Source of the DNA: a virus
Virus record (IMG/VR): IMGVR_UViG_3300045988_094189
Location: 1 to 42,303 of that record
Reading direction: 5' to 3' (one strand)
DNA: 42,303 bases
The position numbers and the translations under genes were made by a program. Positions 15,576 to 42,303 of the stretch are shown piece after piece. Within the stretch, counting starts at the first letter, position 1. Each line of letters opens with the position of its first letter. Below the pieces are notes generated by a model that was given only the letters and a program-made list of their open reading frames with translations, made no database searches and had not been told where the DNA came from.

Positions 15576-15992
15576 GTGCTTGAGAGTTACAGAAAAATCA
15601 ACGTTGAAGAGTTCTTGAGAGATTACCGGGACAACTGCGCCAAGCTGGCAGAACTGAAAAGAGAAAAAGAGTACCTGCTAGGCGCTGCAGGCGTTGACAC
15701 GACAAAAGAGACAGTTAAAGGCGCGCCAAGTTCGCCCACTGAAAACGCAGCGGTTGCAAGGGAACGAATAGACCGCAAGATAGCAGCCCTTGAGGAGTAC
15801 TTCCGGGCGTTTAATGCGGCGATGGACTTCTTAGATGACACAGACAGGCAGATAGTCCAAGAGTTCTATGTCGCCAACAACCCGACAGCCCTATCAGCCA
15901 CAATGCGGCTGCAGCGGTTAGGCTACAGCGACAGAGCTATCAGAGCGAAGCGAGAAAAGGCAATCAAGCGGTTGTATCACTTTTTCAATTAA
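15576..15992 (+). CDS. ArpU/RinA-like late-gene transcriptional activator (sigma region-4-like)
   Basis: 138 aa. LDDTDRQIVQEFYVANNP...ATMRLQRLGYSDRAIRAKREKAIKRL resembles sigma-70 region 4. It is the last gene of the early operon, just before the packaging genes. Confidence 0.65.
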   Translation: MLESYRKINVEEFLRDYRDNCAKLAELKREKEYLLGAAGVDTTKETVKGAPSSPTENAAVARERIDRKIAALEEYFRAFNAAMDFLDDTDRQIVQEFYVANNPTALSATMRLQRLGYSDRAIRAKREKAIKRLYHFFN

Positions 15993-16012
15993 ATCGCTGT
16001 AAAACAAAAATA

Positions 16013-16029
16013 GCCCCCTTTACGGGGGC
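16013..16029. terminator. Bidirectional intrinsic terminator between convergent operons
   Basis: GCCCCC-tttac-GGGGGC. A T-run follows on the minus-strand reading (tatttttgtttt), and cttgtgttt follows on the plus strand. Confidence 0.7.
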
Positions 16030-16036
16030 CTTGTGT

Positions 16037-16222
16037 TTAGAAGCAGCAGTATAATGGGCTGCCCTCTATGCCAAGCCTGTCGCGAACGTAGTCGCCAAGA
16101 CAAGTGGCATACCTACAAGTTGCACAGCTTCCGCCAAATCTACAATCTGTGGAAACGCTGTCGCATTTTGGAGCGTTTTTAATTATTCGCTCCGCCTTTT
16201 TTATTTCAGTTTCTGTATACAT
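16037..16222 (-). CDS. Cassette gene 5: small Cys-rich protein
   Basis: 61 aa with 7 Cys (CDSVSTDCRFGGSCATCRYATC...YCC). Last gene of the minus-strand cassette. Confidence 0.6.
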   Translation of the reverse strand: MYTETEIKKAERIIKNAPKCDSVSTDCRFGGSCATCRYATCLGDYVRDRLGIEGSPLYCCF

Positions 16223-16224
16223 TG

Positions 16225-16452
16225 TTACAGCTCCTTTCCTTGCTTTCTGTTGCCGCCTTTGTTCTCGGCGACACGAAAACTGTTGTGGTTTTCTCTATAT
16301 TCTCGCAAGGCGGCCTTTATAAGACCTGCCTTGCTGTTTGTCTTCGCGAACATATCCAATATGTCCGCGTCTGTGCTGTGGTACAGGGTGACTGTCACCC
16401 TATCCGCGTTTGCTTTTTTCCAAGCGGCGTCCCGCTGATTTTTTGTTGCCAT
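16225..16452 (-). CDS. Cassette gene 4: ribbon-helix-helix-like DNA-binding protein (candidate autoregulator)
   Basis: 75 aa. ADRVTVTLYHSTDADILDMFAKTNSKAGLIKAALREY has the beta-strand/helix/helix pattern of CopG/Arc RHH proteins. Confidence 0.6.
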   Translation of the reverse strand: MATKNQRDAAWKKANADRVTVTLYHSTDADILDMFAKTNSKAGLIKAALREYRENHNSFRVAENKGGNRKQGKEL

Positions 16453-16455
16453 TCT

Positions 16456-16992
16456 TCACGCTCCCTCAAATCTTGCAATCCCAGTCGGGCAATAATCCGT
16501 GCCGTGTTTTTCGTCGAGTTCTCTAAGATATTTCTCAATTATGTCATTCTGTTTCTCGCAAATCTTAAAAAACGTATCGTATTCCCAGCTTTCTTCTTTC
16601 CAGAGGGTATACCCACTATGAGGGAAAAAGGCATTCGGGTTTTCTTCATTGAATTTATCGGCTCTTTCCTCCCATTCTTCTCTTTCTTCATCTGAGAGCA
16701 AGTCATAATAGTCCTCTTCGCCGGGCATATCACAGGAAATCAACAATTTCAATTCTGGCAATCCTACTTCTTTTAACTTATAACTCATGTTGTAATCATT
16801 GCAGTCGCTAAATTCATTCAGCAAATCAGCAGCGTTGCGGTTCCACATACTCTCGAATGAGCAGTGGAACTCGTGTCTTTTTGCGCATAGCTCCTGAATA
16901 ACGTCGTGCTGTTCAGGTGTCAATGTTTTTATTTCCTCATTCTCTCTGTTCTTTCGTTCTACGTACTTTTCTTTTGCTTCCCACTTATCCAT
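16456..16992 (-). CDS. Cassette gene 3: acidic protein of unknown function
   Basis: 178 aa, visibly D/E-rich (GEEDYYDLLSDEEREEWEERADKFNEENP). SD GGAGTAAGCGAGG lies upstream. No family recognised. Confidence 0.7.
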   Translation of the reverse strand: MDKWEAKEKYVERKNRENEEIKTLTPEQHDVIQELCAKRHEFHCSFESMWNRNAADLLNEFSDCNDYNMSYKLKEVGLPELKLLISCDMPGEEDYYDLLSDEEREEWEERADKFNEENPNAFFPHSGYTLWKEESWEYDTFFKICEKQNDIIEKYLRELDEKHGTDYCPTGIARFEGA

Positions 16993-18755: not shown

Positions 18756-18825
18756 GCCGACGTAGCTCAGATGGTAAGGCCTGTTAAGCACAAGGTCGCA
18801 GGTTCAAGTCCTGCTGTCGGCGCCA
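18756..18825 (+). tRNA. tRNA-like element / degenerate tRNA (Asn-GTT-like loop, truncated anticodon arm)
   Basis: - Acceptor stem GCCGACG/TGTCGGC: 7 bp with one G-U pair.
- D arm GCTC-agatggta-AGGC.
- T arm GCAGG-TTCAAGT-CCTGC.
- Discriminator G plus an encoded CCA.
- Only 11 nt sit where the 17-nt anticodon arm should be. They include CTGTTAA, but no 5-bp stem can form. Confidence 0.55.
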
Positions 18826-22558: not shown

Positions 22559-22559
22559 T

Positions 22560-22586
22560 AAAGGACCTTAACAGGTCCTTTTATTA
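22560..22586 (+). terminator. Intrinsic terminator after the portal gene
   Basis: aaaggacc-ttaaca-ggtccttt followed by tattat. Confidence 0.7.
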
Positions 22587-24493: not shown

Positions 24494-24525
24494 GAGGGCA
24501 GTTTAATACTGCCCTCTTCTTTATT
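24494..24525 (+). terminator. Intrinsic terminator after the capsid operon
   Basis: gagggcagt-ttaat-actgccctc followed by ttctttatt. Confidence 0.8.
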
Positions 24526-33874: not shown

Positions 33875-33883
33875 GTGACTTAT

Positions 33884-36800
33884 ATGGCGACAATATTCGA
33901 TAAACTGAATAAAAAAGCTGAAAAGGCAGCTGACAAAGGGGCGAAAAAGAAAAAGAAATATAACCCTCAAAAAAAGCAACAGGTAAAGAGCGGTTCCGTT
34001 TCTGTTGCTAAGAATAAAAAGAAAACCAGTAAAAACCTAACATCAAACGAAGCCTTACTTTTGCAGAACCTATCCCGTACAGGCTCAAAAAAAGTAGTAA
34101 AACAGGGTGTAAAAAACGCTGAAAAGACTTTAAGGACCTCAAAAGCAAAGACAAATGAGTATAAAAACCTCAGTAAAAAGACCGAAAGGAAGAAGTCAAA
34201 GCCAAGTAAGCAGTTATCATCTAACGAAAGTCTGTTACTGCAGAACTTAACAAGAACAGGTACGCCGAATGTAGTCAATAAAGGCTTAAAGGGTGCAGAG
34301 AAAACTTTACGAACCTCAAAAGCAAAGACAAATGAGTATAAAAACCTGAACAAGAGGGTAGCAAAGCAGGACGAAAAGTTTTTAAATTCCTCACCTTTTG
34401 CTTACGGCTTTATGGCGGGAACTTCGCCTATTCCGTTAAAGGAAACACTCGAACTGCAGACAGGTCAGAAAATCGACACGTCCAAAGCAGAGAAGTCTGT
34501 CGGTTACAAGGCAGGCTATATGGCAGGACTTGCGGGCGAATATGCTTTAACTGGCGGCGTTGCTAGAGGTGCTGTAGAGCAGAGTGTAAAGACAGCCTTA
34601 AAACAGGCAGGAAAAAAGGCAGGCAAAGAAGCGGTAAAGGATATCGCCAAAGAAGCAGGCAAGAAAAATCTTGCTAAGGTAGGAAAGAAAATGCTGACAG
34701 GTGCGGCGGCGGATACCATTACAGGCATACCTACAAATGCACTTGAAGCAGGCAAAGAGGCTTCCAAAGCACCTAAAGGCGAAAAGGGTAAGGAATTCGC
34801 AAAGTCACTGGCAGTAAATACAGCCTTTGATGTCGGTATGGGTGCTGCGGGTGAGGTTATTCCTGCGGCAATCAAGTCTGCCAAAGCAGCGAAAGCAAGC
34901 AGGAGTTCGTACATTCCTGCAAACACAGTGCCTAAAGAAAGCAAAAAGGTTTATAAAGAGTATACAAAAGCAAATAATAAGCAGATTGCGGACTATGCTA
35001 AAAAAGTTGAAAACAAAAATCAAGGCAAACAAAAATTTGTAGAAGTAACCAAAGTAAACAAGCCTAACTCAGACAAAATAAATGAGTTGACCGGTGTTGA
35101 TACTACAGGCTATACCATTAAGCTGAGAGGACAAACTTTAGAACAGCATATAACGCCAAGACACGGAGCAAATGGCAAAGCCGACAAATCAATGGCTGAT
35201 ATAAACGACTTATCAAGAATGGGATACATAATAGATAATGCAGACAGAATAGATTATGTGTACGATAAGAACGGACGGCCAAAGGTGAGTAAGGAGTATA
35301 CCAATAAAGACAGTTCGAGAGCAAACTTGATAATGTTTGAGAAGAAAATTGACGGACATTATTATGTTGTGACTGCTGTGCCCGACACAAAAGACAAGTC
35401 TCTGCAGGTAGTTAGTTCATATATAAAAAAGGCGGGTCAGACAGGAAATGAAAAAAACCTTTCCCAGTACGTCCGAAACGCTTCTGAAACCACTACCTTT
35501 AGTGACAGTGTAGCACCGTCCGCAACAGATGTCAAGCCTTTAGATGAGAGGTTGTCAGTCGTTAGAGAAGCAAGGGAAGAAGTTCCGAAAGCCTCAGAAA
35601 ACATATCGTATGAGAATATAACACAACCCGAAATCATCAAAAAGGCTGAACAGCGAAAGGTCCAACAGGTGGCAATGGAGAAATCCGCACTGGAAAAAGA
35701 CTTAGGCGCTGATATTAACAGGATAAAAGGCACAACGGAAGAAAACATCACAGAGTATGGCCAGTATGTTAAAAACGGAAAACGCACAAATGTACCACAG
35801 GCTACAGCATACGGGGAAACCTCACAGGCTGCAGTAAACATTCGTAACAGCAAAGAGTTTGAAAGTGCTAAAGAGGCTATCAACAAGGGTATAAACGAGG
35901 GAAGCTTTGCAAAGCATACAGAAAGTCAGAAAACAGCCTTATCAAACGCAGAGAAAACTATAGCTGATGACGGACTGGACGTTGCAGCCGGGAAAGTGGC
36001 AGGTTATACCGAAAGCACAGCCAAAGTGAAAAAAGAAGTTTCTCAAGATCAGATTATGTTAGGCTACAAGGTGGCGCAGAAATATCTTGACGAGGGCAAT
36101 ATTGAAAAGGCTGTAGATGTTTTATCTGATACAGCAATGATTGAAAGTGAAGCCGGTAGAGCGCTGCAGGCGGCAAGGATATTTTCTTCACTGACACCTG
36201 CAGGCAAAGTTAAATCCGTAACAAAGGCTGCCAACAAACTAAGCAAGGAAAAGAATGTTGACATAACACTCAACAATGAACTGCTTGAAAAGCTGTCAAA
36301 AGCTACAGACGCAGACGAAGCAGCAAGAATACAGAATGATATTGCTGTCGATATGTGGAACCAAGTACCGCCTACCATTATGGATAAAATCAATGCGTGG
36401 AGATATACAAGTATGTTATCATCGCCAAAAACACATATCCGTAACATGCTGGGCAATGCCATGTTTGTACCATTCAGAATAATATCAAACGGGCTGCAGG
36501 TGGGAATGGAAAAAGCCTTTGTAAAGGAAGCAAACAGAACAAGGGCGATATTAAACCCTGCAACAGACAAAAATCTTATAAAAATGGGAGCGGAAGATTA
36601 CAAAAAAGTAGAATTTACGCTTAGAAACAATACAAAGTACATTGACACACGCAGACCTCAGGACGCAAGGGTATATAAACTTAAACCTTTAGAGAGTGCA
36701 AGAAAGTTCGTATCATGGTCTCTTGACGCAGAGGACGGATTGTTTATGAAGTACCACTACTCAAGAGCATATGCAAGGTATCTGAAAGCACAGAAAATCA

Positions 36801-38377
36801 AAGGAAAAGTTCCTGCAGAGGTGGCGGAAAAAGCAAGAGCCTTTGCTTCACAGGAAGCCTTAGAGGGAACATACAGAGACGCAAATGCATTATCTGATTT
36901 TCTCAACAATACAAGGAAATCGTGGGCGAACGCAGATAATAAAGTGTTGGCAAAACTCAGCACAATGATGTTAGATACCACAGTACCTTTTGTAAAAACT
37001 CCTGCCAACATCTTAAAGCAAGGTGTGAGATATTCACCTTTAGGGCTTGCTGAAGGTCTTGTAAGAACAGGAATATATGGTGTTAAAAAGTCATTCAGAA
37101 GCCCTGAACAGGTAAGTAAGATTATCAAAGAAATATCAGAGGGGCTTACAGGTACAGGAGTGACAGCCTTAGGAGCATATCTTGCTTATGAGGGACTGCT
37201 TAATACCTCAATGGATACACAGAGCAAAAAAGGGCAGTACGACAAGATGTTAGGCGAGCAAGAATACTCAGTCAACATAGGCGACTATACATACACTGTA
37301 GACTGGACCATACCGGCGTCAATGCCAATGATGATAGGTGCAGAGATAGCTAAGTTTACACAGGAAAAAGGACTGTCATTTGTCGATACGCTTAACGCCA
37401 TAAGTAACATTGCAGAGCCTTTATTAAATCTGTCAATGCTTAGTGGTATCGAAAACACATTCAATACAGCCTTTTCGCAGGAAAGTACATTTAAAGAGAT
37501 TGCCAAAAACACAGCAGAGGGTTATGTGTCGCAATTCTTCCCAACATTACTTTCGCAAATAGCCAAAACAACAACAGAAACAAGGAAATCAACGACAGCC
37601 ACCAACAAATCACTAGCCGAAAGAGATATGAAAAGGTATCTTAATCAGCTCACAAACAAGATTCCGTTGGCAAACGAAAACCTTGCTGATTACATCAATC
37701 TGTGGGGCGGCAAAGAAACAAAGTATTCAAACTCGGACTATTTTGTAGCATTGTTACAGAATGTATTTTCTCCCGGCACTCTTAAAAAGAAAGAGACAAC
37801 ATCTGTTGATAGAGAGTTGCTATCTTTATATGACAGGCTAGATGACGATACTGCAAACACAATTATTCCGAAAAACACACCAAGCGGATATGGTGTAGCT
37901 TTTGCCGGCACAGAATATCAGATGTCAGAAAAGGATCTGCAAAAATATAAAGAGACGCGAGGCAGGCAATCATATGAAGAAGTTCACAAACTTATAAATA
38001 CCAGCAAATATAGAAATATGAGCGACGAAGACAAGGCGAAAGCTATAAAGGAAATCTATAGCGACGCCGGGACATATGCAAAAGAAGAATTTTTGAGGTC
38101 GAAAGGCGTGTCTGACACAGATATCCAATTCAACAAATTGCATAAAGAAACAAAAGCAAAGTTCAACAATATGCCGTCAAATGTGACAAAAGAAGCGTAT
38201 GTTGCTGTAATGAGTTCAAAAGGCAAGGCTAAAGCAGACACAGACGGAAACGGAAGCATACGACAGGTTGAAGCCGAGGCATATTTAGATACACTGCCAT
38301 ACTCAAACAGCGTTAAGGCGGAACTATGGCAAGCCTACAACGCAAGATGGGCGGCAAGAAATAACCCTTACAGATAG
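33884..38377 (+). CDS. Very large virion protein (polyvalent/ejection-type) with embedded PBECR-like nuclease-toxin domain
   Basis: 1497 aa from ATG 33884 (SD AGGTGA).
- Lys-rich N-terminus with a 59-aa tandem duplication.
- Segment LRGQTLEQHITPRHG...DINDLSRMGYIIDNADRIDYVY...GHYYVVTAVPDTKDKSLQVVSSYIKK at about nt 35100..35430.
- Long helical C-terminal region with hydrophobic segments. Confidence 0.6.
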   Translation: MATIFDKLNKKAEKAADKGAKKKKKYNPQKKQQVKSGSVSVAKNKKKTSKNLTSNEALLLQNLSRTGSKKVVKQGVKNAEKTLRTSKAKTNEYKNLSKKTERKKSKPSKQLSSNESLLLQNLTRTGTPNVVNKGLKGAEKTLRTSKAKTNEYKNLNKRVAKQDEKFLNSSPFAYGFMAGTSPIPLKETLELQTGQKIDTSKAEKSVGYKAGYMAGLAGEYALTGGVARGAVEQSVKTALKQAGKKAGKEAVKDIAKEAGKKNLAKVGKKMLTGAAADTITGIPTNALEAGKEASKAPKGEKGKEFAKSLAVNTAFDVGMGAAGEVIPAAIKSAKAAKASRSSYIPANTVPKESKKVYKEYTKANNKQIADYAKKVENKNQGKQKFVEVTKVNKPNSDKINELTGVDTTGYTIKLRGQTLEQHITPRHGANGKADKSMADINDLSRMGYIIDNADRIDYVYDKNGRPKVSKEYTNKDSSRANLIMFEKKIDGHYYVVTAVPDTKDKSLQVVSSYIKKAGQTGNEKNLSQYVRNASETTTFSDSVAPSATDVKPLDERLSVVREAREEVPKASENISYENITQPEIIKKAEQRKVQQVAMEKSALEKDLGADINRIKGTTEENITEYGQYVKNGKRTNVPQATAYGETSQAAVNIRNSKEFESAKEAINKGINEGSFAKHTESQKTALSNAEKTIADDGLDVAAGKVAGYTESTAKVKKEVSQDQIMLGYKVAQKYLDEGNIEKAVDVLSDTAMIESEAGRALQAARIFSSLTPAGKVKSVTKAANKLSKEKNVDITLNNELLEKLSKATDADEAARIQNDIAVDMWNQVPPTIMDKINAWRYTSMLSSPKTHIRNMLGNAMFVPFRIISNGLQVGMEKAFVKEANRTRAILNPATDKNLIKMGAEDYKKVEFTLRNNTKYIDTRRPQDARVYKLKPLESARKFVSWSLDAEDGLFMKYHYSRAYARYLKAQKIKGKVPAEVAEKARAFASQEALEGTYRDANALSDFLNNTRKSWANADNKVLAKLSTMMLDTTVPFVKTPANILKQGVRYSPLGLAEGLVRTGIYGVKKSFRSPEQVSKIIKEISEGLTGTGVTALGAYLAYEGLLNTSMDTQSKKGQYDKMLGEQEYSVNIGDYTYTVDWTIPASMPMMIGAEIAKFTQEKGLSFVDTLNAISNIAEPLLNLSMLSGIENTFNTAFSQESTFKEIAKNTAEGYVSQFFPTLLSQIAKTTTETRKSTTATNKSLAERDMKRYLNQLTNKIPLANENLADYINLWGGKETKYSNSDYFVALLQNVFSPGTLKKKETTSVDRELLSLYDRLDDDTANTIIPKNTPSGYGVAFAGTEYQMSEKDLQKYKETRGRQSYEEVHKLINTSKYRNMSDEDKAKAIKEIYSDAGTYAKEEFLRSKGVSDTDIQFNKLHKETKAKFNNMPSNVTKEAYVAVMSSKGKAKADTDGNGSIRQVEAEAYLDTLPYSNSVKAELWQAYNARWAARNNPYR

Positions 38378-38387
38378 GAGAAAGAAG

Positions 38388-38714
38388 ATGTTAACAACAA
38401 CCCAAATTATCACAATTATTGGATTTATCTTTGCTTCAAATGGCTTTTGGGCGTTTCTTACAAACCGAAGTCAGCGGAAAAAAGTAAACCTTGAGCAAAT
38501 GCAGACGGATATTGCTGTTCAGAAAAAATCAAACAAGGCACTACTACACGACAGGCTCACAGATGTCTGCCTTTTGTGTATACGGCGGCAGTACGTATTC
38601 CCTGATGAACTCGACAACATAGAGTATATGTTTGAGCCATATGAGGAATTAGGTGGAAACGGCACTGTTAAAAAATTAGTTAAAGACGTTAGAAAACTTC
38701 CTGTAAGGGAATAG
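38388..38714 (+). CDS. N-terminally membrane-anchored protein upstream of the holin
   Basis: 108 aa. TM IITIIGFIFASNGFWAFL, then LHDRL...YEELGGNGTVKKLVKDVRKLP. Confidence 0.55.
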   Translation: MLTTTQIITIIGFIFASNGFWAFLTNRSQRKKVNLEQMQTDIAVQKKSNKALLHDRLTDVCLLCIRRQYVFPDELDNIEYMFEPYEELGGNGTVKKLVKDVRKLPVRE

Positions 38715-38727
38715 AAAGGAGAAAAAA

Positions 38728-38919
38728 ATGTCTAAGAAATGGTTAAAAGCTGCTCTCGTGAGGGCTGTAAAAACGATTGCACAGACAGCAGTTGCAACAA
38801 TAGGCACTTCAATGGTTATCTCGGAGGTTAACTGGGTAATGGTAGCAAGTGCGTCAGTATTAGCAGGAGTAATTTCAATCTTAACTTCTGTTGCAGGACT
38901 GCCGGAAGTGGAGGACTAA
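38728..38919 (+). CDS. Holin
   Basis: 63 aa. ALVRAVKTIAQTAVATIG plus a second TM VMVASASVLAGVISILTSVAG, and an acidic C-terminus. It lies directly upstream of the endolysin. Confidence 0.8.
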   Translation: MSKKWLKAALVRAVKTIAQTAVATIGTSMVISEVNWVMVASASVLAGVISILTSVAGLPEVED

Positions 38920-38920
38920 T

Positions 38921-39664
38921 ATGCGAATCAATGTACATTGTGGGCATAACGCCGCAGGCAGGGTTGCCTGCGGCGCCGTGTCTATCTTAAACGAAAGCAG
39001 AGAGAACAGAAAAGTCGGAAAAGAAGTCATCAGACTTCTGAGAATTGATAATACTGTGTATGATTGTACGGTAGATAATGCGGAAGATGTGAACAAGAAC
39101 CTACAGGAGATCATAGCAAAATGCAATGCTCACGAAGTTGACCTTGATGTTTCAATTCACTTTAACAGCGGAGCGAAAAACAAGAAAGGCAACGGTAAGG
39201 TTACTGGCACAGAAGTATGGGTTACCGAAAACAAGGGCATAAAAAGAGTTGTCGGCGAAAACATATGCAACAATATGAAACGATTAGGCTTTACGAATCG
39301 TGGGATAAAGAAAACAAGCGGACTTTATGTCCTTAATCACACAAAGGCAAAAGCAATTCTTATAGAGGTATGCTTCGTTGACGACTTAGACGACGCAAGG
39401 CTGTACCGCAAGGTAGGTTATAAGGCTGTGGCAAGAGCCATTGCGGAGGGAATTGTCGGCCACAAAATCGACGAAAGACCAAAGTATAAGGCGGTGAGGA
39501 ATGTCAATATCAGAAAATCCCCTACAATCCACTCAGATAAGCTAGGAGCAATTAAAAAGGGTGAGGCAATAAAGGGTATACCCGTAGAGAATAACTGGCT
39601 GAAAACGGACAGGGGATATGTAAGAATCAAAGGCCTTAAAACATACTTAAAGAGGGAGAAATAA
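38921..39664 (+). CDS. Endolysin: N-acetylmuramoyl-L-alanine amidase (Amidase_3) + SH3-like binding domain
   Basis: 247 aa from ATG 38921 (SD GGAAGTGGAGG). Zn ligand pattern HCGH..NESRE..SIHFN..EVCFVD. The C-terminus YKAVRNVNIRKSPTIHSDKLGAIKKGEAIKG..NNWLKTDRGYV is SH3-like. Confidence 0.9.
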   Translation: MRINVHCGHNAAGRVACGAVSILNESRENRKVGKEVIRLLRIDNTVYDCTVDNAEDVNKNLQEIIAKCNAHEVDLDVSIHFNSGAKNKKGNGKVTGTEVWVTENKGIKRVVGENICNNMKRLGFTNRGIKKTSGLYVLNHTKAKAILIEVCFVDDLDDARLYRKVGYKAVARAIAEGIVGHKIDERPKYKAVRNVNIRKSPTIHSDKLGAIKKGEAIKGIPVENNWLKTDRGYVRIKGLKTYLKREK

Positions 39665-39756
39665 TGCTAGCAACAGATGTTTTAAAAAGGCTGAAAAGGC
39701 AAAACTTAATTCTGACTATTGCAGTATGCGTACTGCTGATTAAGAAAAGAGGCTAA
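39664..39756 (+). CDS. Possible 30-aa membrane peptide after the endolysin
   Basis: MLATDVLKRLKRQNLILTIAVCVLLIKKRG. The ATG overlaps the endolysin stop. No SD beyond coupling, so this is speculative. Confidence 0.3.
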   Translation: MLATDVLKRLKRQNLILTIAVCVLLIKKRG

Positions 39757-39762
39757 CCAAAA

Positions 39763-39984
39763 TTGAGAAAGGTAGTAAAGGTATGCGAATTTATTGAGCC
39801 GGAACTGGACCAGTTCAGGGCAATATGTAATTTCGTAGGGCTTGAAAAAGAAGTATTTGAATTAAGAGCAAGAGGTTATTCATTATATGAGATGTCAGAT
39901 ACACTTGACGTTGATTACGATACTGTCAAGAGAACAAGCCAAAAGGTCACGCACAAAATCATAAAAGCAATTCCATACACTTAA
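39763..39984 (+). CDS. Small sigma-70 region-4 / LuxR-type HTH regulator
   Basis: LEKEVFELRARGYSLYEMSDTLDVDYDTVKRTSQKVTHKI. TTG start at 39763, or ATG at 39783. Confidence 0.6.
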   Translation: MRKVVKVCEFIEPELDQFRAICNFVGLEKEVFELRARGYSLYEMSDTLDVDYDTVKRTSQKVTHKIIKAIPYT

Positions 39985-39993
39985 TACACTCTT

Positions 39994-40034
39994 AACACAC
40001 ACTAATCTGTACGTGATTGGTGTGTGTTTTTTTA
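39994..40034 (+). terminator. Intrinsic terminator
   Basis: aacacacac ... gtgtgtgtt stem (9 bp) followed by ttttttatt. Confidence 0.8.
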
Positions 40035-40063
40035 TTATGCTGTAAGCGAAAGGAGATAAAGAT

Positions 40064-40408
40064 ATGTACGGTTTTAATCCTTATACAATGCCACAAGCCC
40101 CTGTGGGCGTGGTAAACAGCAACAGGGGGGAATTAATCAGAGTAACAGGTTTTGACGGTGCTAAAGCCTATCAGATGTCCCCTAACAGCAGTGTAGCACT
40201 CTTTGACAGCAACGAGGACATATTCTACGTCAAGACTACTGACGGAGCAGGCTTTCCTACAATCAGAGCTTTTAAGTTTACTCCAATGGAAACACAACAG
40301 CCTGCAAGTGAATTTGTAACAAGAGATGAATTTGAGAGATTAAGGCAGGAGGTATTAAGTTATGGCAAGCAGTTTGTTCCAAACGAAGAAGCTCAGCAAT
40401 CAGAGTAA
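40064..40408 (+). CDS. Cargo-module protein, unknown function
   Basis: 114 aa, SD GAAAGGAG. MYGFNPYTMPQAPVGVV...FYVKTTDGAGFPTIRAFKF. Confidence 0.65.
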   Translation: MYGFNPYTMPQAPVGVVNSNRGELIRVTGFDGAKAYQMSPNSSVALFDSNEDIFYVKTTDGAGFPTIRAFKFTPMETQQPASEFVTRDEFERLRQEVLSYGKQFVPNEEAQQSE

Positions 40409-40589
40409 CATAATGTCACTGATAAAGGGCAATCCGGTGCAGGCTTTAACAGGAATCCTGCAGAAAAACCCACAGATGAAAAACATGCTAGACGCTATGG
40501 TAAAAGGGAAAGATCCGAAAGAGGTCTTTTATCAGAAGTGCAATGAGATGGGATATGATCCGGAAGACATTTTAAAACTGATACGTTAG
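40362..40589 (+). CDS. Cargo-module small protein (start uncertain)
   Basis: The ATG at 40362 follows GGAGG by 9 nt but overlaps the upstream gene by 47 nt. The alternative ATG at 40413 gives 58 aa. Confidence 0.5.
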   Translation: MASSLFQTKKLSNQSNIMSLIKGNPVQALTGILQKNPQMKNMLDAMVKGKDPKEVFYQKCNEMGYDPEDILKLIR

Positions 40590-40631
40590 CCTTTAAGGCT
40601 TTTGTAAATAAACTCAGAAAGGGGTATTGAG

Positions 40632-41213
40632 ATGGACAACAACTTATCACTAGCAGACATTGCAGCAGTAAGCGGCAAAGAGGGAGCAAGCGGCGGCGGA
40701 CTATGGATATTCGCTCTGCTTATACTTTTACTTATCGGAGCAGGCGGCGGCGGCTTCTTTGGCGGGGGTGCAGCGTCAAATGCAATGACACAGGCTGATT
40801 TATGTATGAACTCACAGTTCCAGAACTTAAATCAGAATGTGAACGATATCGGGCAGAGACAGTTCATGCAGGCCAACGAGCACACTAAGGACATTGCCAC
40901 AGCTTCGGCAGCAATGCTCACAGGCTTTGACACAGTAGGCTCTAAGATTGATAACTGCTGCTGCGAAACAAACAGAAATATCGACAGCGTAAAGTTCGAT
41001 ATGGCAAACTATGTAGCCTCTATTAATGCTACGTCTACAGCCAACGCACAGAAAATCTTAGATAAAATGTGCGAAAATCAGATGTCTGCAATGCAGAATG
41101 AAATTCAGACACTGAAACTGCAGCAGGCAATGTGCGGCGTTCCGAAAGTCAATCCTTACGGATATGGAATTGTACCGACATTCAGCGGCTGCGGAAATCT
41201 GACAAACATCTAG
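40632..41213 (+). CDS. Gly-rich single-pass membrane protein with Cys-rich coiled-coil ectodomain
   Basis: 193 aa. GASGGGLWIFALLILLLIGAGGGGFFGGG resembles the YjcZ-type tiny sporulation membrane peptides. It is followed by CCCETNRN and C-terminal MCGVPKVNPYGYG. Confidence 0.65.
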   Translation: MDNNLSLADIAAVSGKEGASGGGLWIFALLILLLIGAGGGGFFGGGAASNAMTQADLCMNSQFQNLNQNVNDIGQRQFMQANEHTKDIATASAAMLTGFDTVGSKIDNCCCETNRNIDSVKFDMANYVASINATSTANAQKILDKMCENQMSAMQNEIQTLKLQQAMCGVPKVNPYGYGIVPTFSGCGNLTNI

Positions 41214-41223
41214 TCGAGGGGAT

Positions 41224-41248
41224 AAAAGAGGTCTTACGGACCTCTTTT
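41224..41248 (+). terminator. Intrinsic terminator/attenuator inside the cargo module
   Basis: aaaagaggtc-ttacg-gacctctttt. Confidence 0.6.
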
Positions 41249-41264
41249 GAGAAAGGAGAAAAAA

Positions 41265-41669
41265 ATGAGCTGTAAATCGGGAATATACACAGCAAACACT
41301 ACACAGGGTACAGCCGTTGCTAACGGTGGAATATTACCTTTAGGTAATATCATCAGACGATACGGACAGCATATCAACTTAGGCGGTAACGGTATCACTC
41401 TTACAGGTGGCGGATATTACGATGTAGACGCTACAGTAACAGTAACAGCTGCAGCGGCAGGTCCTGTGTCAGTGGCATTATACTTAAACGGCGTTGCTGT
41501 GCCGGGAGCGGTTGCTACAGTAACAGCGGCAGCAGATGGGATTGTAACACTTCCTGTTTCTGCACTGGTAAGGCTTAACGGCTGTAATGCAGAGGGAACT
41601 CTTACTCTTGTAGTCGGCGGACAGGCTGTAACCACATACAACACAGCAATGGTTGTAGAGAAGATATAA
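41265..41669 (+). CDS. BclA C-terminal-domain-like (C1q/TNF jelly-roll) protein
   Basis: 134 aa from ATG 41265 (SD GAAAGGAG). GGGYYDVDATVTVTAAAAGPVSVALYLNGVAVPG...TLVVGG...TAMVVEKI parallels the Bacillus BclA C-terminal domain (GFYKITVIANTA...LTIQVNGVPVPG...SASIIIEKVA), recalled from memory. Confidence 0.6.
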   Translation: MSCKSGIYTANTTQGTAVANGGILPLGNIIRRYGQHINLGGNGITLTGGGYYDVDATVTVTAAAAGPVSVALYLNGVAVPGAVATVTAAADGIVTLPVSALVRLNGCNAEGTLTLVVGGQAVTTYNTAMVVEKI

Positions 41670-41681
41670 GGCGGTGATGTT

Positions 41682-42122
41682 ATGGGCTTAAGAGACATTA
41701 CGGATAAAATCTACGCCTTAGACGACAAAGAGAAAAAGGAAAAGGCTAACGACCTTTACTACAAGTCAGCGCAAATGCTTAAACATCATAACCCGCAGGC
41801 GTATGAGCAGCTTGTCAGAGAAGCAGAAAATATCTTTTATGACATTGACGAAGAAAAGGCTGTACTGATAGTCAGGAAGATGATACCTTTCGGCGAGCGG
41901 TGGACTTACGACACAGTGAAACAGTTTATCGCCACAAAAGGAATTACAGACAGGTGCATTGAATACTACTTAGCGATGAATATGGCATACAATGACTATT
42001 ACGAAGTGGCTGCCAAATACGGCAATGATAATGAGGATTACTTCTTTGACATAGCTAAAGCATTTGTAGATGATAAAGACGCAGTGCCGAATAAGGTTGC
42101 AAAATACTTTATGCTGACATAA
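41682..42122 (+). CDS. Cargo-module helical protein, unknown function
   Basis: 146 aa. Last gene before the strong terminator and the att-side region. Confidence 0.6.
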   Translation: MGLRDITDKIYALDDKEKKEKANDLYYKSAQMLKHHNPQAYEQLVREAENIFYDIDEEKAVLIVRKMIPFGERWTYDTVKQFIATKGITDRCIEYYLAMNMAYNDYYEVAAKYGNDNEDYFFDIAKAFVDDKDAVPNKVAKYFMLT

Positions 42123-42160
42123 AGACAAAAACCACAGTTTTACCTGTGGTTTTGTCTTAT
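42121..42160 (+). terminator. Strong intrinsic terminator at the end of the rightward transcription unit
   Basis: aagacaaaaaccacag-ttttac-ctgtggttttgtctt (15-bp stem with one bulge). Confidence 0.85.
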
Positions 42161-42194: not shown

Positions 42195-42303
42195 AAAAAA
42201 TTATTTAAAACGCTTTTTTTCACATATAATATCCAAAATCAGCGTATTAAAAACGTTGAAATATCAACATTTATCAAAATCTATTAAGATTAATAATTCT
42301 ATG
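42185..42303. repeat. Right copy of exact 119-bp terminal direct repeat
   Basis: Identical to 1..119 and runs exactly to the window edge. Confidence 0.95.

Follow-up and report, generated by a model that had tools for sequence, protein, structure and literature searches.

A six-gene block beside the endolysin gene

The window analysed here is the whole of IMG/VR record IMGVR_UViG_3300045988_094189, a complete virus record of 42,303 nt in which a direct terminal repeat of 119 bp joins position 42303 to position 1; our subject is a block of six small genes that, on the circular map implied by this repeat, sits between an endolysin gene (38921-39664, + strand) and a tyrosine integrase gene (191-1204, - strand). 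All six open reading frames (ORFs) are present on the + strand with a Shine-Dalgarno-like sequence before each, and we name their products by length: w73 (39763-39984, 73 aa, TTG start), w114 (40064-40408, 114 aa), w75 (40362-40589, 75 aa), w193 (40632-41213, 193 aa), w134 (41265-41669, 134 aa), and w146 (41682-42122, 146 aa, a DUF7841 protein). An earlier note, made from the sequence alone, had described six genes, a Gly-rich transmembrane segment in the fourth product, and three terminators, and we recovered the genes, the segment, and all three hairpins; its gene layout needed one correction, in that the third small gene starts at ATG 40362 and encodes 75 aa rather than starting at 40413 to encode 58 aa, because the resulting MASSLFQ N-terminus fits the MANSLFQ conserved among relatives. 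Comparison with other genomes gives good support to the view that the block represents an accessory cassette that is portable and widespread among phages—a core of w114-w75-w193-w134, preceded by a helix-turn-helix (HTH) gene and followed by a variable sixth gene.

When species-representative genomes were scanned with an alignment of w134, the order HTH, w114, w75, w193, w134 was found in 19 genome loci at 40-58% amino acid identity, with hosts among the Oscillospiraceae, Lachnospiraceae, Monoglobus, Mogibacterium, Acutalibacteraceae, and unclassified Clostridia. Two of these genome records, Lachnospiraceae bacterium X68 (L030) and Oscillospiraceae bacterium 38-13 (L024), seem to come from isolates and not from metagenome assemblies. 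Of 80 viral loci, 78 have a w73 homologue (66-90 aa) ahead of the cassette, and in 79 the w193 and w134 genes are neighbours; the same gene order recurs in 121 further, more diverse viral loci, and the w193-w134 adjacency amounts to 180 distinct pairs across all loci. The core comes in two variants, one with w114 and w75 and the other with a 134-aa substitute. A survey of synteny in related phages thus uncovers a conserved cassette order and not a one-off moron. The families are large, with 2195 clusters at 50% identity for w193 (E <= 1e-3), more than 1331 clusters at 90% identity for w114, and more than 664 clusters for w134. Despite these sizes, of several hundred to more than 2000 clusters, w134 falls below its Pfam cutoff and the w114, w75, and w193 families have no Pfam or NCBIfam match; the NCBIfam library gave no significant match, and none of the six products matches PADLOC-DB 2.0 at E <= 0.1. 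The earlier note knew of no described system with this combination, and we likewise found no description of the cassette in the literature searched.

All eight close relatives of the window phage in IMG/VR carry the cassette, so that the evidence for its dispensability comes only from phages whose head genes are distantly related: w193 and w134 are both missing from four complete phages whose capsid protein is 33-51% identical to that of the window, in a search that recovers both in the window as a positive control. Conversely, five cassette-bearing phage genomes (four CheckV-complete, the fifth a deposited complete genome) have no detectable homologue of the window capsid protein. Taken together, these presences and absences indicate that the cassette is not tied to a particular virion design and is uncoupled from head genes. 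The fixed gene order across different heads, tails, endolysins, and lifestyles in turn points to a function relevant to phage fitness. Against a relative 85% identical to the window phage, the ratio of nonsynonymous to synonymous substitution rates (dN/dS) is 0.03-0.17 for five of the six cassette genes, with similar values for the lysis genes, which shows that these genes are under purifying selection; dS was saturated for w75 in the same comparison.

The place of the cassette beside lysis genes is recurrent, and the lysis genes themselves are diverse. The nearest upstream ORF of at least 120 aa encodes an endolysin in at least 61 of 84 related loci, and these upstream endolysins are of at least nine catalytic types, with eight Pfam types in ten cluster representatives (M15_3, M15_4, Amidase_2, CHAP, ELLD, glucosaminidase, GH25, and others), to which the window (Amidase_3) and locus L199 (C39_2) add two further types. 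Four phage genomes in the 141-180 kb range also carry the core (rated completeness 100% for three of them and 90% for the fourth); neither these four nor Vibrio phage K479, which encodes a w193 homologue, has a match to a tyrosine-integrase or serine-recombinase profile. Two large-phage lineages that differ in lysin type have the cassette 2-3 kb upstream of the endolysin gene, and a w193 homologue in a Vibrio phage lies 1.1 kb from the endolysin gene. Elsewhere the cassette directly follows Dit-Tal (genome G041), stands among tail-fibre genes (G033 and G030), or directly follows the receptor-binding protein gene, there with no regulator (Dulem virus 36). A panel of lysin sequences detected a lysin within 10 kb in 4 of 13 large-phage regions, belonging to two lineages, so that outside temperate phages few independent cases underlie the link with lysis genes. 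Because the core occurs in phages in which no integrase was found, within tail or lysis clusters, a purely lysogenic role does not fit.

Two further loci deserve mention. Near the cassette of a 142-kb phage (locus L322 of genome G015), a 282-aa protein (15912-16760) matches phrog_4105, which is also the PHROG of the window protein w108 (38388-38714, just before the holin gene). We also considered whether a locus beside a host NUDIX gene (L016/L017; 7833-9023 of L016), with 92.6% nucleotide identity to a phage copy, represents domestication of the w193-w134 pair. It holds the last 72 nt of a w193-like gene followed by intact w134-like, 52-aa, and 103-aa genes, and since homology starts within those 72 nt, we regard it as a deletion remnant with no sign of domestication of the pair.

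Predicted properties of the cassette proteins

The earlier note had likened w134 to the C1q-like C-terminal domain (CTD) of the exosporium protein BclA, without its collagen-like stalk, and structure prediction agrees. An AlphaFold2 (AF2) model built on an alignment of 35 relatives reaches a predicted local distance difference test score (pLDDT) of 94.5, with the fold beginning at residue 5, and Foldseek places it nearest to BclA-CTD (3twi/1wck, TM-score 0.80, E 1e-10), F-BclA (0.80), and ExsFA/BxpB (0.73-0.78), then to C1q and TNF-family heads. Pfam BclA_C (PF18573) is matched at E 1.5e-6 with 28.5 bits, short of its gathering cutoff (38), although a precomputed PF18573 label is attached to many relatives; the motifs LNGVAVPGA and, at the C-terminus, VVEKI are present. 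The N-terminus, MSCKS, enters the fold directly with no signal peptide, and w134 showed no collagen match, no GXX stalk, and no N-terminal exosporium-targeting leader. As modelled, w134 is a stand-alone C1q/TNF/BclA-CTD-like jellyroll, presumably a trimer. Stand-alone relatives are found in uncultured phages (Foldseek TM-score 0.84-0.92), and matches in the viral library include collagen-repeat fibre proteins, fibritin whiskers, and PRD1 P5. A protein search for w134 among deposited phages returned two unannotated faecal phage records only, and no DNA similarity of the window to deposited phages was found.

Although the C-terminal domain of BclA and F-BclA (PF18573; 1wck, 3twi, 9h38) is the best fold match, w134 has neither the collagen-like stalk nor the N-terminal targeting domain of those proteins, and its putative stalk would be a separate, helical, membrane-anchored protein, w193. 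The nearest stand-alone analogue is instead BxpB/ExsFA (ExsF; 8d02, 7r5i, 7r1m, 9h3d), likewise a jellyroll (~130-170 aa) that lacks both a stalk and a signal peptide. This protein is a TNF-like trimer of the exosporium basal layer in the Bacillus cereus group; it docks the terminal peptide of a partner and associates with Cys-rich proteins (PMC10470788). Identity to w134 is 17-21% and the two have no Pfam family in common, so that the likeness is one of fold and not a shown common family. Moreover, BxpB/ExsFA is encoded by a gene on the chromosome of a spore-former, with no adjacent transmembrane CCC-containing protein, whereas the phage cassette is also found in hosts in which SpoIVA was not found and the w193 family extends to Vibrio phages.

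The candidate membrane anchor, w193, consists of an acidic N-tail of ~24 aa, a Gly-flanked transmembrane helix, a long N/Q/A-rich body, and a Cys-containing C-terminal tail; the body bears the motifs CCC(E)TNRNID and QKILDKMCENQ, the string GGGLWIFALLILLLIGAGGGGFFGGG is present, and the protein matches phrog_16490 (E 1e-9). Its transmembrane segment is a hydrophobic 17-mer from about residue 24 (mean Kyte-Doolittle value 2.0), a hydrophobic segment of 17-20 residues is kept in 233 family members, and CCC is kept in 205 of these 233. On average the N-tail of the family contains 0.7 K/R and 3.4 D/E, and the C-terminal flank is more positive than the N-tail in 213 of the 233 members, which favours a predicted topology with the N-terminus out, the C-terminus in, and the long body in the cytoplasm. 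A signal peptide was found in none of the six cassette products. Given this and the predicted cytoplasm-facing orientation of most of w193, the suggestion that the module decorates the surface finds little to stand on. Nor does a kinship of w193 with YjcZ-type sporulation peptides survive closer inspection—w193, at 193 aa, has no Pfam family even at E <= 1 and no NCBIfam or PADLOC match, and what remains is a likeness of Gly-rich hydrophobic composition. Profile searches with w193 and w114 against Protein Data Bank (PDB) sequences gave chance-level matches only. A 194-aa homologue in Vibrio phage K479 (E 6e-18 against the w193 profile) has the Gly-rich helix, SCCCD, and ILDKLCENQ in common with the family.

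In several large phages (G037, G031, G034, and G039, and locus L323 of G017), w193 homologues are interrupted by in-frame TAG or other stop codons, with fragmented ORFs around them under translation table 11, a pattern that suggests stop-codon recoding in these phages.

The two remaining core proteins are small. The w114 model (AF2 pLDDT 75.6, above 90 in the core) has a small alpha/beta core at residues ~25-71, a C-terminal helix, and disordered ends; relatives have an N-terminus rich in Q, N, P, and M, and w114 matches phrog_21718 (E 4e-15), but no PDB fold match was found for the model by Foldseek (best E 0.15). w75 is a small helical protein whose gene overlaps that of w114 by 47 nt, an overlap that is kept in relatives at 8-56 nt, and its alignment (A4) shows a conserved MA(N/S)SLFQ start and a core of NPQ...GxxP..VFY..C...G.(N/D)P(D/E)D. 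In the sixth slot, which is variable, the gene is either of the w146 type (Pfam DUF7841, E 2.2e-13 in the window, above cutoff) or encodes a ~100-aa protein of the type found in L012, and either combines freely with both core variants. The alternative protein (L012 8558-8869, L199 6117-6416, L200 2935-3234) has E..H motifs and a weak rubrerythrin/ferritin-like similarity (E 0.002, below cutoff), which hints at a possible metal or redox link with Cys-rich partners.

Candidate regulator, hairpins, and candidate promoter

The 73-aa product at the head of the block had been read as a sigma-70 region-4/LuxR-type regulator, an assignment that holds at the level of the family. Five of 15 family members match Sigma70_r4_2 (best E 1e-6) and three of 15 match GerE, while the family profile matches SdiA, GerE (1fse, E 5.6e-5), and region 4 of sigma-H. 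For w73 itself, phrog_1190 (sigma factor) is matched at E 7e-5, HTH_38 (E 0.021) and Sigma70_r4_2 (E 0.14) are both weak, and there is no Pfam match at E < 0.01. By these profile matches, the family is clearly a stand-alone LuxR/GerE/sigma-70-region-4-type HTH, with weak similarity for the window's own member. A complete sigma factor it is not, as regions 2 and 3 are missing and a single HTH is matched within 73 aa; in this it resembles GerE, a 74-aa stand-alone LuxR-type HTH. Directly upstream of w114, one Lachnospiraceae prophage (L033 5978-6679) encodes a 233-aa protein that joins a GIY-YIG-like nuclease motif at the N-terminus to a second copy of the region-4-like HTH.

Three hairpins lie within the block. 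The first (39994-40028, + strand; -19.6 kcal/mol, z -6.0), between the w73 and w114 genes, has a 14-bp stem followed by U7 and is the only one of the three with a clean U-tract. The second (41223-41248, + strand; -14.2 kcal/mol, z -3.3), between w193 and w134, has a poor U-tail and was not called by the terminator scan; it could serve in partial termination or in RNA stability. The third (42122-42158; -18.7 kcal/mol, z -5.4) is bidirectional, with a terminator score on the minus strand only, and closes the unit; the phage attachment site (attP) is presumed to lie beyond it, followed by the integrase gene, and in a related phage (L012/L013) the homology between prophage and host stops ~150 nt past the last cassette gene. 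The w73 gene itself lies outside the hairpin bracket.

The three hairpins fold well, yet comparable terminator-like hairpins on the + strand occur inside the structural operon, at 22559-22585 after the portal gene and at 24494-24516 after a 122-aa gene, so that such bracketing is not special to the cassette and is not by itself a sign of foreign cargo. Given these structural-operon hairpins, late transcription probably reads through terminators. The hairpin after the regulator gene is a recurrent feature, since a hairpin and T-run are found 3' of this gene in 11 of 11 distant loci inspected, with unrelated stem sequences. Just past the U-tract in the window is a candidate -10 element, TATTAT (40034-40039, + strand), which has no -35 and which, judged from sequence, may be an activator-dependent promoter of w114-w146; no shared promoter motif was found elsewhere in the window. 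A TATAAT-like or extended -10 motif, again with no -35, follows the hairpin in at least four of the 11 distant loci (L019, L020, L022, and L025).

A possible late-infection role and its alternatives

We interpret the cassette, with a probability of about 0.42, as a lytic-cycle accessory unit in which w193 would form a membrane-anchored rod, w134 a C1q-like cap, and w114 and w75 two partly disordered partners, working at the cell membrane late in infection. Because no terminator lies between the endolysin gene and the w73 gene, w73 would be transcribed together with the lysis genes. It would then act at the activator-dependent promoter past the hairpin at 39994-40028, making w114-w146 a separate, very late lytic unit. 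w193 would enter the cytoplasmic membrane by its Gly-flanked helix, with the acidic N-tail outside and the Cys-rich body in the cytoplasm, and a w134 trimer, lacking a signal peptide, would dock onto it as a cap, with w114 and w75 as partners or assembly factors. The complex would work on the infected-cell membrane at the end of infection, its likeliest tasks being control of lysis or release, or a block to the entry of further phage DNA.

Two known systems resemble parts of this arrangement. TNF-family ligands—type II membrane proteins with a stalk and a trimeric head—have a similar order of anchor, stalk, and head, here spread over two genes, and EDA, APRIL, and TWEAK are among the Foldseek matches of w134; the likeness is an architectural analogy only, as the predicted topology of w193 is opposite, with its body cytoplasmic, and the w193-w134 contact is putative. 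The i-spanin Rz of Gram-negative phages shares with w193 an N-terminal transmembrane helix, a long helical Cys-containing body, and a gene beside lysis genes, but the hosts here are mostly Clostridia, mostly with a single membrane, and the charge bias of w193 favours N-out, C-in, where an i-spanin is N-in, C-out with a periplasmic coiled coil in a host that has two membranes. A test for spanins found no o-spanin or lipoprotein partner and no profile match for w193, only the neighbouring w108 being weakly Rz-like (PHROG E 0.04).

Several points weigh against the lytic-cycle interpretation. That w193 is a rod, that the proteins form trimers, and that w193 touches w134 are all deduced from adjacency and composition, and the topology of w193 comes from a weak charge bias in which both flanks are net acidic. 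A consensus promoter scan made no call at 40034-40039, where there is no -35 element, and, given the hairpins inside the structural operon, regulation by read-through or antitermination of late-operon transcription would be just as simple a model. The attP-adjacent, terminator-bounded position in temperate phages would fit a lysogen-expressed gene set equally well, and the tail-gene location in several phages fits a virion role. Finally, we rejected a coupling between Cys3 of w134 and the CCC of w193, which had been suggested by L200, where neither CCC nor the partner Cys3 is present: 23 of 114 pairs are CCC-positive with no N-terminal Cys, and the association is not significant.

If the cassette does control lysis, release, or exclusion, the spread and competition of gut prophages would be affected; the stage to which its steady place next to genes for lysis and tail fibres points is the least understood part of infection in Gram-positive hosts, its end. 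A broader proposal, that it is a general late-infection device of tailed phages, made of a membrane-anchored Cys-rich rod, a C1q/TNF-like cap, and two disordered partners, with its own mini-regulator, performing a membrane step outside current models of lysis, release, and exclusion, is one that we put forward tentatively and consider rather unlikely; such a device would be present in thousands of gut Clostridia phages, both temperate and apparently virulent, with its anchor occurring in Gram-negative phages too, and the cultured Vibrio phages with the anchor protein (K479 and 1.238.A) offer a possible experimental entry.

Foremost among the alternatives is an accessory virion structure, in which w193 would be the shaft of a trimeric fibre or needle and w134 its distal knob, serving as an adhesin or as capsid cement or decoration, with w114 and w75 as chaperones or adaptors and the hydrophobic N-terminus of w193 either anchoring the fibre in the particle or entering the target membrane. 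TNF/C1q-like knobs are frequent at phage fibre tips, consistent with the fibre, whisker, and PRD1 P5 matches in the viral library. An Enterococcus phage Tal bears a TNF-superfamily tip (PMC13517437), and for Helicobacter phage KHP30 the same text refers to a cement protein that is TNF-like; these precedents keep the virion alternative alive, as do the cassettes placed after the receptor-binding protein gene, after Dit-Tal, and among tail-fibre genes. However, the transmembrane-like segment kept in 233 members would route w193 to the cell membrane, and tailed virions have no membrane. The cassette is also uncoupled from head genes, it occurs in many different lysis and tail contexts with no common docking site evident, and a regulator and terminators of its own are unusual for structural genes. 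On balance we judge a virion role, both for the w193-w134 fibre and for the parts it assigns to the other products, to be unlikely.

Still lower in our estimation, and improbable as a whole, is a moron expressed in the lysogen, providing superinfection exclusion at the membrane or an abortive-infection-type defence with the Gly-zipper helix of w193 as effector and w134 as sensor. Classical phage morons (e.g., HK97 gp15) are inserts at the end of the late region, bounded by a promoter and a terminator, dispensable for the virion, and with a membrane protein as product, and the cassette resembles them in some ways—it adjoins the presumed attP and the integrase gene, is bounded by hairpins, has a small candidate regulator of its own and one putative membrane-protein product, is absent from phages with related heads, and lies at the prophage end in many IMG/VR contigs. 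It departs from them in comprising five or six genes in fixed order in thousands of phages, among them complete phages with no integrase or recombinase found, where it sits inside tail or lysis clusters. None of its products matches PADLOC, and the regulator gene, following the endolysin gene with no terminator between, is probably expressed late. The L016/L017 remnant, which keeps w134 but only 72 nt of w193, likewise offers no domesticated pair. The second reading offered in the earlier note, an accessory receptor-binding or superinfection-exclusion set, keeps some probability.

The earlier note had suggested lysogenic conversion of the cell or spore surface, which would make the block an exosporium-like module of the BclA/BxpB kind with a GerE-like regulator, and hosts bear on this directly. 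Most identified hosts are spore-forming Clostridia, Spo0A_C is present in all three genomes tested (Mogibacterium and Acutalibacteraceae included), and SpoIVA is present in three of five host metagenome-assembled genomes (MAGs) but absent from the other two, those of Mogibacterium and Acutalibacteraceae, with MAG incompleteness as a caveat. We consider this conversion very improbable: the top structural matches of w134 all come from the Bacillus exosporium, whose proteins likewise have no signal peptides, the regulator profile matches GerE, and the Cys-rich partners are reminiscent of ExsY/CotY, yet the GerE/sigma-region-4 similarity is that of a generic fold, no collagen stalk, exosporium-targeting leader, or YjcZ match was found, w193 homologues occur in Vibrio phages, and the core is carried by 141-180 kb phages with no integrase or recombinase match. 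The combination of lytic-looking phages that carry the cassette and hosts in which SpoIVA was not found thus argues that it is not a spore-surface conversion unit, and a BclA-like match in a Clostridia prophage should not be annotated as evidence for one.

New in this analysis are the upstream endolysin types, the integrase and recombinase tests in large phages, the presence and absence of the cassette relative to head genes, the charge-bias topology count, and the failed Cys covariation.

Around the cassette, the window encodes a terminase, a portal, and a major capsid protein, together with the tyrosine integrase (Pfam Phage_integrase, E 1.4e-16) that adjoins the cassette on the circular map. 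The lysis block, assigned by PHROG and Pfam matches (38388-39664), consists of w108, an r1t-type holin, and the Amidase_3 endolysin, which has an SH3-like domain (Pfam Amidase_3 E 5.5e-28, phrog_435 E 1.3e-57) and directly downstream of which the cassette begins. Between endolysin and regulator is a 30-aa ORF (MLATDVLKRLKRQNLILTIAVCVLLIKKRG; 39664-39756, + strand) whose ATG overlaps the endolysin stop codon and which is conserved ahead of the regulator gene in L011, the relative with 85% identity; hydrophobic with basic ends, it may encode a small, lysis-linked membrane peptide, and its membership of the cassette is uncertain.

Two features lie further away. Rfam calls a tRNA at 18756-18822 (+ strand; score 40 bits, gathering score 29), in a 570-nt gap before the terminase gene, and ARAGORN finds no tRNA anywhere in the window; the element could be a tRNA of atypical or decayed form. 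Immediately ahead of the lysis genes, a 1500-aa protein (33875-38377, + strand) with no PHROG or Pfam match has a Lys-rich N-terminus and a twice-repeated segment of ~55 aa (…SNE(A/S)LLLQNL(S/T)RTG…KTLRTSKAKTNEYKNL…), and could belong to the internal or ejection proteins of a short-tailed phage.

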